From Enterobacteria phage GiZh: a stretch of DNA of 64,000 nucleotides. Under the pieces are notes generated by a model, which was not told the origin of the DNA, did no database searches, and saw nothing but the letters and a program-made list of their open reading frames with translations. Position 1 is the first letter of the stretch, and each line of letters opens with the position of its first letter. This document shows positions 477-19,322 of the stretch, piece by piece. The DNA lies in the sequence record NC_054903.1; one strand, given 5' to 3'. Made by a program: the position numbers and the translations under genes.

Positions 477-499
477 TTATTCTCCAAATCCGTATCAGT

Positions 500-556
500 T
501 GATAGTTGTATAGTACCATAAAGCTTTATGCTTGTAAACCGTTTTGTGAAAAATTT
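500..556 (-). promoter_or_regulatory. early-promoter/stem-loop cassette (PeSL-like)
   Basis: Minus sense GTTTAC (forward gtaaac 535-540), about 18-nt spacer, GGTACTATAC -10-like; near-identical copy at 15758-15815. Confidence 0.5.
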
Positions 557-561
557 TTGAA

Positions 562-590
562 ATAAAAAAAAAGGGAGCCCGAAGGCTCCC
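562..590 (-). terminator. intrinsic terminator
   Basis: Hairpin GGGAGCC-CGAA-GGCTCCC (573-590) followed on the minus strand by a 9-U run. Confidence 0.7.
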
Positions 591-592
591 TA

Positions 593-1606
593 TCATTTAT
601 AATAACTTCGGTGGTTTTCAAGATAGACCTTCTCAAGGAAGTCATCCCAGAAACTCATGTCTACTGTTTTAGGCATACCGTTCTTAGAAGCTTCAGTAGA
701 TGCTGCTTCTACTTGATCGACCACATCTTCCAAAAACTCTTGAACTGTTTTAAATGGATGTTTACCCAACTTCACGTCGAGAATAAATGGAGCATCTTGA
801 AGTGGATAGACTAAGTCACCAGTTTTGTAAATTTCCAATAGTTGGAGTCCACCACGACAAGCATGACTCAAAGCTTTCCAGTCAATACCTTCATTGGCTT
901 CGGCCTTACGAGCACGTTCACCATATTCAGCATCTAATTTGTTCAGTGACTGCTTAAGCTCAATAAGAGAAAGCGTTGTCTGATATTTACGACCCAACAC
1001 AGTGTAGAACGTTTGTGGGCCTGTTTTCTCATGATTATGGAACACCCATTCACAGAATTCGTTTTCTGGAAGACGATGCTTAATATCTTCAACTTTAGTG
1101 CGACGCTGCTTAATAGAACCATCTTCTTGGTAATCAATCCACTGCTCAGGGATTTGATTAACTACTTTCAATACATCACGTAATGCAGCCAAACGAGAAC
1201 CTTTGACACCGTATTTAGAAGCTTGCTTGCGGACATATCCTAAATATGATTTCATGTTAGTCGTATAAAAACGAGAACGGTTGTCTTGAATAAACTTCCA
1301 CACATCAGGCAAATCAGATTTAACCACTAGTTCAGGTGGAGTGTGAAGCATATCTAATGCTACGGTTTCACCATCTGCTGCTAATTTAAAGAAATATTTA
1401 AGACTGTATAGTTCATGGTCAATATCATCTTTAGTGTTTTTAGATGATGTGTTGTTAGTGTTTTTACTCATATGCTCTTTAACATTTCCGATAAGAATAT
1501 CGCGAGCAGGAGGAACAAAGATTTCTTTAAAATCTACATCAGATTCTGGAGTAGAAGTTCCATAAAGATGACTACCAAAATAGCTTTTCATTACTGTTTT
1601 CATCAT
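593..1606 (-). CDS. nucleotidyltransferase-fold protein (pol-beta superfamily signature)
   Basis: 337 aa ORF; N-terminal YFGSHLYGTSTPESDVDF fits the G[GS]-x(9-13)-Dh[DE]h NTase motif; later acidic residue in VALDMLH. Confidence 0.6.
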   Translation of the reverse strand: MMKTVMKSYFGSHLYGTSTPESDVDFKEIFVPPARDILIGNVKEHMSKNTNNTSSKNTKDDIDHELYSLKYFFKLAADGETVALDMLHTPPELVVKSDLPDVWKFIQDNRSRFYTTNMKSYLGYVRKQASKYGVKGSRLAALRDVLKVVNQIPEQWIDYQEDGSIKQRRTKVEDIKHRLPENEFCEWVFHNHEKTGPQTFYTVLGRKYQTTLSLIELKQSLNKLDAEYGERARKAEANEGIDWKALSHACRGGLQLLEIYKTGDLVYPLQDAPFILDVKLGKHPFKTVQEFLEDVVDQVEAASTEASKNGMPKTVDMSFWDDFLEKVYLENHRSYYK

Positions 1607-2064
1607 TCAGCCTTATATTCAATAACAGGACATACTTTAGCTTTACGCGCTTTTAAAAATTCGACGATAACCGATTTCTTGGGTTGAATAGGAGGTAAAC
1701 CTTTATACGCCCTATCAATATTTTCTACGTGTAAAGCATAATCCTTTTTCCATTTATAATCTTTATATTTTTCACGCAAATGTGCAGGAATAACAAATGA
1801 ACCGATAATAAGTAAAACAACCAAAAGCGCAAGTATAAATGCCGATGGAAGAAGAGTCCATAAACTACCGAAAATAAGCCAACGTTGTAGGCTTTCTGCA
1901 CAAATAATTGTTAGCCCTACGAGTATAGCACATCCAAAAATAGAAACGAAAAATGTAGGAATGGCAATAGACCAAAAATATGCGCATAGTGTCTTAGGTC
2001 GTTGCCATTCATCGTTAAACAATTTGAATAATTTATAATGCCAAGAGTTTTCATTAATAATCAT
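1603..2064 (-). CDS. hypothetical membrane protein
   Basis: 153 aa ORF with hydrophobic helices; 4-nt overlap with downstream gene suggests coupling. Confidence 0.5.
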   Translation of the reverse strand: MIINENSWHYKLFKLFNDEWQRPKTLCAYFWSIAIPTFFVSIFGCAILVGLTIICAESLQRWLIFGSLWTLLPSAFILALLVVLLIIGSFVIPAHLREKYKDYKWKKDYALHVENIDRAYKGLPPIQPKKSVIVEFLKARKAKVCPVIEYKAE

Positions 2065-2066
2065 AA

Positions 2067-2588
2067 TTATCCTTTCATTGAAGGTGTAACAGTTGTTAAA
2101 TACTTAATCATAGCCTCAGCTTCTGATTTTGATAGTGAAATTTCTTCACCGTTTTGGCGAATAGAAACAAAATCTGGATGACGATCACCACCAGCTTTTA
2201 AAACACACATATAAGTATCAGCTTCGCCTTCAATATTTGAAATGATTGAAGCAGTTCCACACGAATGTGGTTTTTGATAAATCAATACAGCTTTTCTTCC
2301 ACCATTTGACTGTTCATAGGCTTTTAATACATCAAACAAATCAGTTCTTTTATCAATAGCTAAAATGTTATTTTCATCTTCAATGTTAAATCCTTCGGAT
2401 ACTTCATAAAGCGTTACCCATAAATCACCAATGTCAATAACAGCATTTACTTTTCCACGGCTTTCAAGAGTATGACAAATTTTCTTGATTTCGTCATAAC
2501 TCATTTTAATAATATCATCTCCTTGAATAAGAAAGATGTCATTTTTAAATTCAACACGAATTAAACCACTTTCACTTGAAATAAACAT
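2067..2588 (-). CDS. hypothetical protein, member of a tandem paralog family
   Basis: 173 aa ORF; C-terminus EAEAMIKYLTTVTPSM resembles that of the next ORF. Confidence 0.5.
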   Translation of the reverse strand: MFISSESGLIRVEFKNDIFLIQGDDIIKMSYDEIKKICHTLESRGKVNAVIDIGDLWVTLYEVSEGFNIEDENNILAIDKRTDLFDVLKAYEQSNGGRKAVLIYQKPHSCGTASIISNIEGEADTYMCVLKAGGDRHPDFVSIRQNGEEISLSKSEAEAMIKYLTTVTPSMKG

Positions 2589-2594
2589 ATTTCC

Positions 2595-2906
2595 TCACTT
2601 TGAAATCATAGTTGGAATGACAGAATCAAGATAAGTCTTTAGTGCAATAGCTTCGTCTTTGGTAAATGTGACAATATGTGCTCGAGAATCATCATTTTGG
2701 CGAACAAGTACGACATCGCCATCTTCATAAGAAGTCTTGACATCCAAAGTCGTAGTATAGTTTGCAGCTACTGGATTAATAATGTTAGCACCGCGATCTT
2801 TAGCCCATTGAAGTTTAGCCTTTTCGGGTGTTTCGGCTGTTTCAGATTCTAAGAATTCTTTCACCTTGGCAACGAATGTTGCCCAATTGTTGATAGAAAG
2901 ACACAT
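2595..2906 (-). CDS. hypothetical protein, tandem paralog (start placed at internal Met MCLSINNW)
   Basis: ORF 2595..2966 in track; start trimmed to avoid 56-nt overlap; C-terminus DEAIALKTYLDSVIPTM. Confidence 0.45.
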   Translation of the reverse strand: MCLSINNWATFVAKVKEFLESETAETPEKAKLQWAKDRGANIINPVAANYTTTLDVKTSYEDGDVVLVRQNDDSRAHIVTFTKDEAIALKTYLDSVIPTMISK

Positions 2907-18052: not shown

Positions 18053-18468
18053 CCTTCATCAACAATAGTATGCGTATTGGCATTTACAATTTGCCACCAA
18101 TCAAAGCGATTGGAACCATAATCTGGTTTGTTTTCATTTTCTTTGATAATGTCACGGAGTTCATCTTCAGTGGCGGCTTTCGCGATTAAATCAGCATATC
18201 CACCACGAGGATAATAATTATCACCTGCAAAAAGTAAAAAGTTTGGTTTAATGTTATTGAACTCTTCAAGAGTAATAACCTTTCCTGACGGTTGAACAAT
18301 CTCTACATATTTATATCCCAATTTTTGAGCAGCATCTACTGCTTCAAGCAAAGTATCATGAGCCCATCCAATTTGACAACCTGGCTTTTCAGATGGATTA
18401 GCCTGATAATCCGCATACACTTTGTACATTCTATTCACCTTTAGAAATTTTATCCATAACGATAGCAA
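18049..18468 (-). CDS. hypothetical protein
   Basis: 139 aa ORF; 4-nt overlap with downstream ORF. Confidence 0.5.
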   Translation of the reverse strand: MLSLWIKFLKVNRMYKVYADYQANPSEKPGCQIGWAHDTLLEAVDAAQKLGYKYVEIVQPSGKVITLEEFNNIKPNFLLFAGDNYYPRGGYADLIAKAATEDELRDIIKENENKPDYGSNRFDWWQIVNANTHTIVDEG

Positions 18469-18616
18469 TTAAACCAATTAAAAATGCTACTACAAGTGAA
18501 AACACATTTTCTGCTGTAGTCAATAATCCGCATATAAATCCAACAAACATTGAAAAACTAAAAGCAGAAGCAGAAATTGCAATAGCAACATTTCGAATTA
18601 ATTCACAACGTTTCAT
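18431..18616 (-). CDS. small membrane protein
   Basis: 61 aa hydrophobic ORF downstream of promoter/stem-loop at 18630-18680. Confidence 0.4.
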   Translation of the reverse strand: MKRCELIRNVAIAISASAFSFSMFVGFICGLLTTAENVFSLVVAFLIGLIAIVMDKISKGE

Positions 18617-18629
18617 TTTATTCTCCTCG

Positions 18630-18680
18630 GTAGTTGATAGGGTAATAGTATCACTACCCTATCTAAAAGTAAACTTATTT
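18630..18680 (-). promoter_or_regulatory. early-promoter/stem-loop cassette (PeSL-like)
   Basis: Core TAATAGTATCACTAC flanked by inverted repeat gataggg/ccctatc; gtaaac 18669-18674. Confidence 0.5.
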
Positions 18681-18908
18681 TTTACGAAAAATTGATTTAT
18701 TTTCTGCTGCCCATTTTTCAATAACTGCAGCAGGACCAGTAACAACAATTTTATCACCGTAATCTTCTGCGGCGAGTTGACCGAAATTATCTAATGCATC
18801 ACGAAGAACTCCATGAGGCATTTCACCCATTTTATCTTTCTTGCCGGTGTAAATAAACTCAACTTTTACATCAGAAGATTCAGCGATAAACTCTTTGAAA
18901 GTTTTCAT
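18675..18908 (-). CDS. internal-protein-like (capsid-targeting leader)
   Basis: Start placed at MKTFKEFIAE then SSDV (track ORF extends to 18974); about 77 aa. Confidence 0.6.
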   Translation of the reverse strand: MKTFKEFIAESSDVKVEFIYTGKKDKMGEMPHGVLRDALDNFGQLAAEDYGDKIVVTGPAAVIEKWAAENKSIFRKK

Positions 18909-18934
18909 TTTGATTTCCATTTGGTTTTGTTTTG

Positions 18935-18990
18935 ATAGAGTAATAGTATCACTACTAAAACCCTGTGTAAACAACTTTGTGAAATTATTT
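18935..18990 (-). promoter_or_regulatory. early-promoter cassette (PeSL-like)
   Basis: Same core; gtaaacaactttgtgaaattattttaaa shared with copy at 19262. Confidence 0.5.
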
Positions 18991-19242
18991 TAAATCTTCT
19001 AATCGTTTCTTCATCTTAGAACCATTTTTAGCAATTTCTCCTGCATCTGAGCATAATGCTAAAAGCGCTTTAACTTTAGTTTGGTCTCCTTTAAAAGATG
19101 AAGGATCGACTGCAGCAGCAAGTTCTTTAATACGAGAGAAAAGACGCTCAGCTTCAGCTAAAGCCATTCCAAGCTTTACTTCCATACCGTGGGAAGATTC
19201 GGTGATAGTAGTTTTTGTAGCAAACTCTTTGAAAGTTTTCAT
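18985..19242 (-). CDS. internal-protein-like (capsid-targeting leader)
   Basis: 85 aa; MKTFKEFATKTTITE then SSHG; AGGA upstream of ATG. Confidence 0.65.
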   Translation of the reverse strand: MKTFKEFATKTTITESSHGMEVKLGMALAEAERLFSRIKELAAAVDPSSFKGDQTKVKALLALCSDAGEIAKNGSKMKKRLEDLK

Positions 19243-19261
19243 TTTATTTTCCTAATTAATT

Positions 19262-19322
19262 TTGATGAGATAATAGTATCACTACCTCATCAACGTGTAA
19301 ACAACTTTGTGAAATTATTTTA
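19262..19322 (-). promoter_or_regulatory. early-promoter/stem-loop cassette (PeSL-like)
   Basis: Same core flanked by inverted repeat ttgatgag/ctcatcaa; gtaaac 19297-19302. Confidence 0.5.

Follow-up and report, generated by a model that had tools for sequence, protein, structure and literature searches.

The early promoters of bacteriophage T4 are composed of UP, -35, TGn and -10 elements with extra consensus regions (Hinton 2010, PMC2988021), and the regB promoter has been described in the literature as a typical early promoter. Composites that join an early promoter to a stem-loop (PeSL) have been published for RB49/phi1 (Arbiol 2010, PMC2839356) and for the pairs PST/T4 and nt-1/KVP40 (Comeau 2014, PMC4122927); mini-circles and terminator activity have been demonstrated for RB49/phi1 only (PMC2839356). 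Elements that shuffle genes at the ip locus of T-even phages are attributed to Repoila 1994 in PMC2839356 and PMC4122927. Promoters located inside a hairpin are also known from the T4 genes e, soc, 49 and I-TevI, where they exert translational control, long read-through RNAs being closed and those started at the proximal promoter open (review PMC3014915).

Here we describe a comparable set of elements in Enterobacteria phage GiZh (sequence record NC_054903.1), of which a stretch of 64,000 nt, referred to as the window, was analysed. The window belongs to a Tequatrovirus (T4-like phage) with ~97% identity to known isolates. Over its first 20 kb, identity to Tequatrovirus genomes is 95-97%, and positions 1-21,000 constitute the nrdC-tk-regB-e-tRNA-ip early region, with the order nrdC.10 ... 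tk ... regB ... denV-e ... tRNAs ... ip ... 57A, on the minus strand throughout. We consider it very probable (about 0.88) that the repeats dispersed in this region serve a T4-like phage as early promoters (Pe) dependent on sigma-70, and most of them have a built-in stem-loop. A first-pass annotation had reported dispersed early-promoter/stem-loop repeats as marks of hyperplastic early regions and likened them to the PeSLs of T4-type phages. This observation is confirmed by 11 minus-strand elements in a Tequatrovirus early region, and the resemblance holds, as early promoters with stem-loops fit the published description (PMC4122927, PMC2839356); what the annotation made of it is partly supported. 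The composite has already been published for T4 relatives and the finding, of a known kind, is real but ordinary. As in other PeSLs, the promoter and its stem-loop lie between an upstream stop codon and a downstream Shine-Dalgarno (SD) sequence and ATG, are concentrated in hyperplastic regions and adjoin some indels, and the PST/T4 consensus TTTACW-N17-TAYWAT (PMC4122927) fits the GiZh copies.

All six intervals listed in the first-pass annotation contain the element, namely, on the minus strand, GTTTAC separated from TGn-TA(C/T)TAT by a 17-bp spacer (the -35 hexamer being counted as TTTACN), with the first G of GTTTAC at 539, 4299, 15798, 18674, 18972 and 19302. Scanning both strands of the whole 64-kb window with a position-weight matrix raised the total to 11, adding elements at 3487, 8495, 11586, 15075 and 15461; the full set is confined to the minus strand between 473 and 19,362, and the late-gene part of the window (43 kb, 21-64 kb) gave no match on either strand. 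With the family matrix the elements score 25.6-48.4 bits, against a maximum of 14.6 in 20 first-order Markov randomisations of the window that preserve dinucleotide frequencies. The matrix was seeded with 10 of the 11 elements, P3487 (25.6 bits) being independent; in leave-one-out scoring the seeds reach 12.8-40.6 bits, P15075 (12.8) being the sole one under the null maximum. Every element is found 55-75 nt 5' of an ATG with an SD, placed to drive the next gene, and related loci contain 9-13 matrix sites apiece, on the gene strand without exception.

The consensus (GTTTAC, 17 bp, TGn-TAnnAT) is that of T4-type early promoters, which also share with the GiZh elements the A/T-rich upstream tract, the extra conserved positions near +1 and the location ahead of early genes, in the same orientation. 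There is no essential difference from T4; GiZh lacks the T4 ipII/ipIII pair between denV and e, and its e.7 and ip genes differ, so that some promoters would drive different genes. Several elements have direct orthologues in T4 (55384, 57990, 58780, 62797 for regB, 70359, 70696, 73572 and 73939), and a T4 matrix match with its G at 133331 leads, minus 36, to 133295, the start site 'Pe133295' of the T4 record. Promoter activity and +1 positions in GiZh are predicted from the consensus and from orthology with T4.

With the two hexamers set aside, pairwise identity averages 0.367 among the 11 elements and 0.407 among the six initially claimed, compared with 0.288 +/- 0.009 (maximum 0.325) in 2000 random sets of 11 drawn from 73 generic sigma-70-like sites of the same window; the copies are therefore more similar than unrelated sigma70 promoters. 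A generic sigma-70 scan returned 86 sites versus 78.5 +/- 9.3 in shuffled sequence, and hexamer matches alone therefore mean little. This is what would be expected of chance sigma-70-like matches in AT-rich DNA, an explanation which, like that of a non-promoter repeat family (e.g. a MITE-like element), retains a negligible probability and was rejected: the matrix scores clear the null, strand and position are uniform, the distance from SD and ATG is fixed, the late genes are devoid of matches, orthologous sites exist in T4 and other genera, the excess similarity is real, and the terminal inverted repeats and target duplications of a MITE-like element are absent. The copies at 486-556 and 15758-15815 had been called nearly identical, which is true of their flanks (23/23 nt, 497-519 versus 15756-15778; 93% over 30 nt, 533-562 versus 15792-15821) but not of the 14-nt spacer between them, with 4/14 matches. 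The regions of P18972 and P19302 are 83% identical over 71 nt (the 18909-19000 element versus 19260-19330; repeat D1). The most likely reason for the resemblance is the long consensus common to T4 early promoters (A/T-rich upstream tract, GTTTAC, 17-bp spacer, TGn, TAnnAT and the conserved start region CTATCAA), which host RNA polymerase would recognise straight after infection; this implies that the similarity does not come mainly from recent copying.

Each element occupies a gap of 55-110 nt between the stop codon of an early gene and the SD of the next. In a long gap, the stem-loop stands apart from the promoter: it is a GC-rich terminator with a U-run, immediately 5', as is the case for P539 and P4299. 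P539 (476-562, minus strand, as are all features below), the predicted early promoter of nrdC.10, displays an UP-like A/T tract, the -35 GTTTAC at 539-534, TGG-TACTAT at 518-510, a predicted +1 at 503, the SD GGAG at 485-482 and the ATG at 475-473; T4 has an identical promoter at 55384, and folding of the element gave no stem-loop across the -10. A stand-alone intrinsic terminator after nrdC.11 (572-591; AGGGAGCC-UUCG-GGCUCCCU then U9), with 8 pairs, 6 of them G-C, and a T-run, ends 32 nt 5' of the P539 -35. P4299, the candidate promoter of mobD.5 (4242-4305; -35 at 4299-4294, -10 TACTAT at 4275-4270, SD GAGG at 4253-4250, ATG at 4241), forms only a weak stem-loop (-6.7 kcal/mol); the stand-alone terminator after rI.-1 (4315-4332; AGUCUCC-UUCG-GGAGACU then U6) ends 15 nt 5' of its -35, and T4 is arranged alike at 58780. 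P15798, assigned to e.8 (15726-15821), belongs to the P539 sub-family, with identical flanks and a different spacer; it has no stem-loop across the -10, and its closest terminator lies 140 nt 5' (15959-15936). This terminator-hairpin is within a 36-bp direct repeat (D14, 89% identity) whose copies (15927-15962 and 16482-16517, the latter also a terminator-hairpin) flank the ORF 15967-16440, with breakpoints in relatives at 15961/16482; a note in the RB32 annotation also bears on it.

In a short gap, the arms take the only sequence-free parts of the promoter, that is the spacer and the stretch from the -10 to the +1 or the SD, and the -10 becomes the loop. In P3487 (putative promoter of mobD.2, 3430-3487), which was missing from the initial list, the mobD.2a stop codon abuts the -35 and arms at 3480-3467 and 3458-3445 surround the -10 (-19.0 kcal/mol, z -4.9), both mismatches relative to T4 being G.U pairs. 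In P8495, the regB early promoter (8439-8495; -21.4 kcal/mol, z -5.9; arms 8489-8473 and 8460-8443), the promoter spacer pairs with the regB SD GAGGAG and the -10 is in the loop. P11586, the predicted promoter of denV (11532-11586; -16.6 kcal/mol, z -4.2), has arms at 11580-11564 and 11553-11536 and an outer helix made of UUUCUCC and the SD GGAGGGA. The e.7 stop codon abuts the -35 of P15075 (candidate promoter of e.6, 15002-15075; z -3.8), where a 7-bp core stem GGGAGUA/UACUCCC (15061-15055 and 15046-15040) with arm covariation encloses the -10. P15461, assigned to a variable e.7-like gene (15406-15461; -15.7 kcal/mol, z -4.7), folds around its -10 at 15453-15426 (AGGCUCAU..AUGAGCCU). P18674, assigned to trna.4 (18617-18702; -16.4 kcal/mol, z -3.8), has its -35 abutted by the stop codon of the upstream ip gene and a stem-loop at 18663-18636 (GAUAGGGUA-loop-UACCCUAUC) whose loop is the extended -10. 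The two remaining elements would serve the ip genes: P18972 (18909-19000, for the gene at 18675-18908) has a weak, interrupted stem-loop at 18964-18937 (-9.9 kcal/mol, z -2.0), and P19302 (19243-19330, for the second gene at 18985-19242) one around the -10 at 19293-19262 (UUGAUGAGGUA..UAUCUCAUCAA, one G.U pair; -15.5 kcal/mol, z -4.9).

Altogether, 8/11 window promoters have a stem-loop with the -10 in its loop (z from -2.0 to -5.3 overall, next to the -5.9 given above for P8495), an interleaving that the first-pass annotation had missed. This is similar to RB49/phi1, where the stem-loop is mostly between the boxes or overlaps the -10 and includes G-T pairs (PMC2839356); by contrast, a figure legend places the stem-loops of the T-even pair just 5' of the promoter (PMC4122927), as in only 2/11 GiZh elements. 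In T4, 15/28 matrix matches reach z <= -3. Among 58 distinct representative promoters, which are not phylogenetically independent, 34 have an embedded hairpin, 9 an upstream terminator and 1 both (Fisher p = 0.0025); 16 of these 58 and 3/11 window promoters lack both an embedded hairpin and a terminator next to them. Alignments indicate that the stem-loop is preserved by compensatory changes across genera. Orthologues of the e.6 promoter have four different arm pairs, all fully complementary; both sides changed in 5/7 pairs, the observed covariation score was reached in 0/500 shuffles, and 91% of the alignment cells pair versus 36-54% with the partner slid. Likewise, the helix between spacer and SD of regB is kept in three genera despite different arm sequences.

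That the inverted repeats act as DNA, through cruciforms or hairpins aiding promoter opening or recombination hot spots, is improbable. Their arms border the region melted by RNA polymerase, and Arbiol 2010 speculated that the stem-loop is a target of recombination proteins, one crossover being mapped inside a loop (PMC2839356). However, a cruciform requires pairing on both strands, whereas folding favours the sense strand, by 2.65 kcal/mol over the antisense (shuffles, 0.32 +/- 0.26), and this strand has 90 G.U (G.T) pairs versus 44, with A.C mismatches opposite. In addition, the SD is the 3' arm in ~10/34 embedded hairpins, 25-30 nt downstream, which is sensible only for RNA; the other 24/34 fall short of the SD. 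The sigma-70 open-complex bubble spans -11 to +2, and the 5' arm is outside it. The sequence would be compatible with a hairpin formed by the non-template DNA strand on its own.

An RNA role would have the following logic. Transcription would start ~7 nt past the -10, leaving the promoter's own RNA without the 5' arm, so that the hairpin could form only in read-through RNA from upstream; there it would mark the 3' side of the upstream gene, possibly as an attenuator or 3'-end protector. The embedded hairpins have no U-runs and are therefore not canonical intrinsic terminators. In a subset (regB, denV), the hairpin may mask the GGAG ribosome-binding and RegB-cleavage site; translation, and later inactivation by RegB, would then occur mainly on transcripts from the gene's own early promoter. 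The predicted regB and denV helices have the same geometry as the e, soc, 49 and I-TevI control, although in the latter the proximal promoter is late and the effect measured, whereas in GiZh the promoter is early and the effect predicted; a further difference is that most early-promoter stem-loops do not extend to the SD.

The first-pass annotation also regarded the flanked ORFs as the likeliest recent acquisitions, in line with a model in which mobile PeSL cassettes are the main movers of accessory genes (e.g. by mini-circle excision and integration). Some indels or replacements do end in elements: the e.7 cassette (breakpoints 15409/15432), the ip genes, denV (absent from RB32 and RB6, breakpoint 11532), an extra AndreasVesalius ORF with its own promoter inside P539, and a deletion in BYEP01 of exactly the 64-nt P15798 promoter module. 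Breakpoints in relatives fall within elements at 485-499, 11532-11542, 15022-15076, 15409-15432, 15759/15823, 18654-18681 (P18674, 4 relatives) and 18984-19000. The ip and e.7 genes each lie between two copies and are replaced in relatives, and the cassette model has been published for RB49/phi1 and PST/T4. Nevertheless, we find it unlikely for GiZh. Seven of the 11 promoter-proximal genes (nrdC.10, mobD.2, mobD.5, regB, e.6, e.8, trna.4) are common to 7/7 Tequatrovirus relatives and several are also found in another genus; across these relatives, variable genes are not enriched beside promoters (4/11 versus 11/38 elsewhere; Fisher p = 0.72). Breakpoint clusters are in excess in promoter elements under uniform placement (10/42 versus 6.5% of the sequence, p = 3e-4), but this excess vanishes against a gene-junction null (promoter at 11/49 junctions, p = 0.48). 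GiZh differs here from published PeSLs, the link to variable genes being no stronger than at any other gene junction. Most variable blocks (1607-3324, 5862-6429, 10632-11131, 12579-13044 and the tRNA cluster) are not bordered by a promoter, and spacers wholly different between otherwise identical copies argue against recent copying.

The elements share identical blocks of 20-70 nt, and phage recombination therefore sometimes crosses over within them, which swaps or deletes a gene between two copies (ip genes, e.7). Such swaps are a by-product of the homology present where genes meet and no sign that each flanked gene is new. One e.7 deletion (L011, L013) fuses non-homologous parts of two promoters and is thus not a PeSL-by-PeSL homologous exchange. 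The GiZh ip genes (18675-19242) are reminiscent of the Repoila elements as the citing papers present them: each is served by a separate early promoter that includes an AT-rich stem-loop, and the 5' coding end is conserved; replacements in relatives stop either within the promoter (18654-18681, 18984-19000) or shortly after the gene begins, within its first 20-30 nt (18873-18887, 19208-19222). The RB32 annotation records a 43-bp direct repeat around Ip7/Ip9.

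A weight matrix built from clear promoter copies and scanned over all 64 kb on both strands yielded 11 matches, all of them on the minus strand, with the first G of GTTTAC at 539, 3487, 4299, 8495, 11586, 15075, 15461, 15798, 18674, 18972 and 19302 (each element is named here by that position, e.g. P539). Their scores range from 25.6 to 48.4 bits, as against a best score of 14.6 bits in 20 first-order Markov randomisations, which preserve dinucleotide frequencies. Ten of the 11 elements were seeds of the matrix; in leave-one-out scoring they gave 12.8-40.6 bits, P15075 alone falling under the null maximum (12.8 vs 14.6), and P3487 scored 25.6 bits though it was no seed. 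The 43 kb of late genes contained no match on either strand. A generic sigma-70 consensus scan was uninformative (86 sites vs 78.5 expected), and the family-specific matrix was therefore used in its place. GTTTAC and a 17-bp spacer are present in every element, the -10 being TACTAT, TATAAT, TATAGT, TAGTAT or TATTAT, and TG occupies -15/-14 in nine of them (AG/GA instead in P15075 and P15461). An ATG preceded by a GGAG-type Shine-Dalgarno (SD) sequence follows each element at a distance of 55-75 nt. The first-pass annotation had reported at least six copies upstream of minus-strand early ORFs, each with a GTTTAC -35 and a -10-like core; all six (P539, P4299, P15798, P18674, P18972 and P19302) are real members of the set of 11, and each of the six intervals, read on the minus strand, carries GTTTAC, the 17-bp spacer and TGn-TA(C/T)TAT.

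Judging from their consensus, their placement, T4 orthology, start-site calibration and the literature, the 11 elements are very probably T4-type early promoters. Equivalent elements are found at the same junctions in T4, and related loci contain 9-13 elements each, in every case on the gene strand. One T4 match has its G at 133331; subtracting 36 gives 133295, which a note in the T4 record identifies as the start site of early promoter Pe133295, and +1 is thus predicted at G-36 in every element. This single note excepted, the T4 GenBank and RefSeq records annotate no promoter features. The regB promoter (P8495 here) has been described as a typical early promoter. The minus-strand gene order is nrdC.10, nrdC.11, mobD-region genes, rI, tk, vs, regB, vs.3-vs.8, an Ip4-like gene, denV, e, nudE, e.2-e.8, the tRNA cluster, trna.2-4, two internal-protein (ip) genes, 57B, 57A and gene 1, and the stretch from nrdC.10 to gene 1 is among the known hyperplastic early regions of T4-type genomes. 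About 1,200 phage records match the first 20 kb, the best being Tequatrovirus isolates (95-97% identity over 95-99% of the query). Non-ACGT letters occur in the window once within the mobD.1-like gene (2919) and nine times, in scattered positions, over 63847-63954, which suggests an assembly or consensus with ambiguous calls.

The elements resemble one another more than unrelated sigma-70 promoters do: with the two hexamers set aside, the 11 elements share a mean pairwise identity of 0.367 and the six first reported one of 0.407, compared with 0.288 +/- 0.009 among 73 generic sigma-70-like sites drawn from this window (maximum 0.325 in 2000 random sets of 11). The excess peaks at TGn (0.65 vs 0.28) and over the 12 nt past the -10, the CTATCAA start region (0.53 vs 0.33), and also occurs immediately 5' of the -35. 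This shared extra similarity is the extended consensus familiar from T4 early promoters, for which the term UP/-35/TGn/-10 promoters with additional consensus regions has been used (PMC2988021). Self-comparison of the window with a repeat finder recovered the element families independently, including 18632-18702, 18930-19000 and 19260-19330 (83% identity over 71 nt between the second and the third) and two repeat pairs linking P539 to P15798 (533-562 with 15792-15821, 93%; 497-519 with 15756-15778, 100%). The description of P539 and P15798 as nearly identical holds for these flanks (93-100%) but not for a 14-nt spacer that matches at only four positions. A spacer scrambled between conserved flanks speaks for functional constraint, or for promoter parts evolving in concert, and against a recent copy. 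The module of about 100 nt to which they belong has two copies in the window (476-562 and 15726-15821) and at least six in T4 (27080, 55384, 70696, 146875, 163673 and 167086; loci L036, L001 and L037). Its layout is an upstream tract, GTTTAC, a variable spacer and ATGGTACTATACAACTATCAACTACTGATAC(A/G)GA, with unrelated spacers between near-identical flanks; the T4 copies at 55384 and 146875 have one common palindromic spacer, CATAAAGCTTTATG.

When the 50 nt 3' of GTTTAC were folded for each element, a hairpin with the -10 as its loop was predicted in eight of the 11 (z -2.0 to -5.3), its arms being the promoter spacer and the segment from the -10 to +1: P3487 (-19.0 kcal/mol, z -4.9), P8495 (-21.4, z -5.3), P11586 (-16.6, z -4.2), P15075 (-14.0, z -2.7), P15461 (-15.7, z -4.7), P18674 (-16.4, z -3.8), P18972 (-9.9, z -2.0) and P19302 (-15.5, z -4.9). 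In P8495 and P11586 the predicted 3' arm reaches the SD, and in P3487, P8495, P15075, P15461 and P18674 the upstream stop codon abuts the -35. Stand-alone terminators lie 15-32 nt 5' of the promoter in two further elements, namely a minus-strand intrinsic terminator with a U9 tail at 591-572 preceding P539 and one with a U6 tail at 4332-4315 preceding P4299; P15798 alone has neither an embedded hairpin nor a nearby terminator. The embedded stems of the window lack a U-run, which argues for an attenuator or a 3'-end protector and not for a canonical terminator. In T4, 15 of 28 matrix matches have z <= -3. An Rfam scan of 1-21,500 returned only ten tRNA genes (16834-17661, minus strand), the stem-loops matching no family.

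Four tests, namely covariation, the regB helix, strand asymmetry and exclusivity with terminators, agree that this stem-loop is a selected structure. Orthologues of the e.6 promoter (P15075 here), taken from IMG/VR contigs and from phage LF82-2, contain four perfectly complementary arm pairs (GGGAGTA/TACTCCC, GAGAGCA/TGCTCTC, GAGGACA/TGTCCTC and GGGAACA/TGTTCCC). Both sides change in five of the seven pairs and 91% of the alignment cells pair, a share that falls to 36-54% after a shift of the 3' partner by 1-3 columns; the covariation score was equalled in none of 500 shuffles. The helix joining the regB spacer to the SD is kept in three genera, whose RegB proteins are 100%, 77% and 68% identical; its inner arms vary in sequence among the three, each folding with z about -6. 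These promoters were folded one by one, since the MAFFT alignment gapped one arm only and pair counts on it would mislead. In a set of 58 distinct promoters, sense-strand folds are more stable than antisense ones by 2.65 kcal/mol (0.32 +/- 0.26 for dinucleotide-shuffled sequences), with 90 G.U pairs in sense and 44 in antisense. Such asymmetry fits RNA or the non-template strand alone, and it disfavours a symmetric DNA cruciform as the selected structure. The same 58 promoters comprise 34 with an embedded hairpin, nine with a stand-alone terminator, one with both and 16 with neither (Fisher p = 0.0025), a near mutual exclusion which suggests that embedded hairpins and upstream terminators do the same job. 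The promoter-interleaved stem-loop is thus clearly under selection at the RNA level, and it seems interchangeable with a stand-alone terminator.

A promoter's own transcript would begin about 7 nt 3' of the -10 and hence without the 5' arm, so that folding would take place only in RNA arriving from upstream. At short gaps, the hairpin would lie 10-15 nt past the upstream stop codon, the expected place of the upstream gene's 3' stem-loop. In RB49/phi1, one stem-loop of the promoter-early stem-loop (PeSL) type lowered the expression of a downstream reporter roughly to the degree seen with a strong terminator (PMC2839356). The 3' arm is predicted to be the GGAG SD itself in about ten of the 34 embedded hairpins, including those of regB and denV here and of the T4 dexA and nrdC.9 promoters and others. 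RNA structure blocks both translation, in T4 genes e, soc, 49 and I-TevI, and RegB cleavage at GGAG (PMC3014915); read-through RNA of this subset would thus be closed and RegB-resistant, and the promoter's own early RNA would be open. The stem-loops that span the -10 may therefore constitute a conserved RNA device separating a gene's own early transcript from read-through, the upstream message being capped and, in the regB/denV/dexA type, the GGAG hidden. We give this reading about one chance in three: the structural evidence for a switch between own and read-through RNA is strong, and the switch function itself is a prediction. If true, it would carry the principle of genes e, soc, 49 and I-TevI beyond a few late promoters, to early promoters across the genome, and would help explain why RegB spares the middle transcripts of the same genes. 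The interleaved stem-loop provides a testable handle on the insulation of tightly packed early genes in T4-type phages, and bears on which transcripts get translated or cut by RegB.

The combination of early promoter and stem-loop in one element is what has been published as the PeSL, a kind of element already known, including in this genus. The proposed likeness to the PeSL cassettes of T4-type phages is borne out by the arrangement in the window, with promoter and stem-loop between the upstream stop codon and the SD/ATG. PeSLs were described in RB49/phi1 by Arbiol et al. 2010 (PMC2839356), and Comeau et al. 2014 (PMC4122927) added the T-even pair PST/T4, whose consensus is TTTACW-N17-TAYWAT; for the ip loci, both papers credit Repoila et al. 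1994. Since T4 early promoters and PeSLs are thus published for close relatives, their finding by itself adds little. In PST/T4 a figure legend puts the stem-loop 5' of the promoter, whereas eight of the 11 elements here have it spanning the -10 and two have it upstream; the -10-spanning position has already been published for RB49/phi1. In the accessible literature, T4 transcription-start maps and earlier reports of -10-spanning hairpins were looked for, and nothing came up apart from the two PeSL papers and two reviews of 2010. As far as could be checked, covariation, strand asymmetry, terminator exclusivity and the SD-masking subset are unpublished. P8495 and P11586 are predicted to pair the SD with a strand 5' of their own start, as do the hairpins of T4 e, soc, 49 and I-TevI. 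However, the proximal promoter is late in those genes, with late-only translation, and early here. The window elements lie outside that documented set and, by analogy, may work in a similar way.

The PeSL model also includes gene shuffling; termination or attenuation and mini-circles arising from element pairs were documented by reporter assays and inverse PCR in RB49/phi1 only (PMC2839356). Positions 1-21,500 were aligned to seven Tequatrovirus relatives (T4, KMB40, AndreasVesalius, RB32, PYPS2T, BYEP01 and RB6) and one Mosigvirus-like phage. Certain events have their ends within elements: the limits of the e.7 cassette lie at 15022-15076 (in P15075) and 15409-15432 (in P15461), those of the ip genes at 18654-18681 and 18984-19000 in their promoters and at 18873-18887 and 19208-19222 within the initial 20-30 coding nt, and that of denV at 11532. 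The first codons of the two ip genes (18873-18905 and 19208-19242) are common to both, ATGAAAACTTTCAAAGA..., a capsid-targeting leader. The ip replacements in relatives end at these shared codons, and the conserved 5' coding end would thus be a second homology arm for swapping. The e.7 deletion in loci L011 and L013 was also considered as a homologous promoter-to-promoter exchange, a reading rejected because the e.7 leader is fused at the junction to the -10 of the e.6 promoter. The comparison of cassette positions among the seven relatives gave a divided answer. Elements make up 6.5% of the region yet contain 10 of the 42 breakpoint clusters (p = 3e-4 vs uniform placement); this share is, however, no greater than that of promoter-bearing junctions among all gene junctions, 11 of 49 (p = 0.48). 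By sequence comparison, the elements appear to serve sometimes as crossover sites, in line with the PeSL model.

The further claim that the flanked ORFs are the likeliest recent acquisitions found no support in this small sample of seven relatives. Promoter-proximal genes are no more often variable than the rest, with four of the 11 genes directly downstream of a promoter vs 11 of 38 others (p = 0.72), and the other seven (nrdC.10, mobD.2, mobD.5, regB, e.6, e.8 and trna.4) are present in all seven relatives. Among these relatives the elements are not a reliable pointer to new genes; in this region they guide to recent genes no better than other gene junctions, and the use of PeSL positions as novelty markers in phage annotation is tempered accordingly. 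A 157-aa ORF at 15967-16440, absent from T4, RB6 and BYEP01, is a cassette bounded by terminator copies and not by promoter copies: it is bracketed by 36-bp terminator-hairpin direct repeats (15927-15962 and 16482-16517; 89% identical; AGCCC..GAAA..GGGGCU plus a U-run), and the breakpoints fall exactly at the repeats. The RB32 annotators recorded the same terminator-hairpin repeat. Around Ip7/Ip9 their notes place a '43 bp direct repeat', and around ORF133c a '34 bp imperfect direct repeat'. The tRNA cluster accounts for 11 of the 42 breakpoint clusters, with many small replacements among relatives, and its homing-endonuclease genes also differ (segB-like in T4 and RB32, a different one in AndreasVesalius).

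BYEP01 lacks exactly the 64-nt P15798 module, from the upstream A/T tract to +1 (window 15760-15822 vs 16519-16520 in BYEP01), with 4-nt AACT microhomologies at the ends, and its e.8 has lost its own early promoter through this deletion. AndreasVesalius, the closest relative, has an extra 201-bp ORF that, along with a promoter of its own, is inserted within P539, between nrdC.11 and nrdC.10 (window 486-498 vs 1486-1760 in AndreasVesalius). The inserted promoter is of a different type, GTATAC ... with a TAGGACTA-TGTTATAGT-AGTCCTA hairpin. Another recurrent promoter sub-family occurs at several unrelated junctions, at 4423, 15270, 16565 and 23456 in LF82-2 and at 1532 in AndreasVesalius. Its embedded hairpin is nearly constant, (A/G)TAGGACTA-TGTTATAGT-AGTCCTA(T/C), which suggests that entire promoter-hairpin modules, beyond promoter halves, are copied within a genome.
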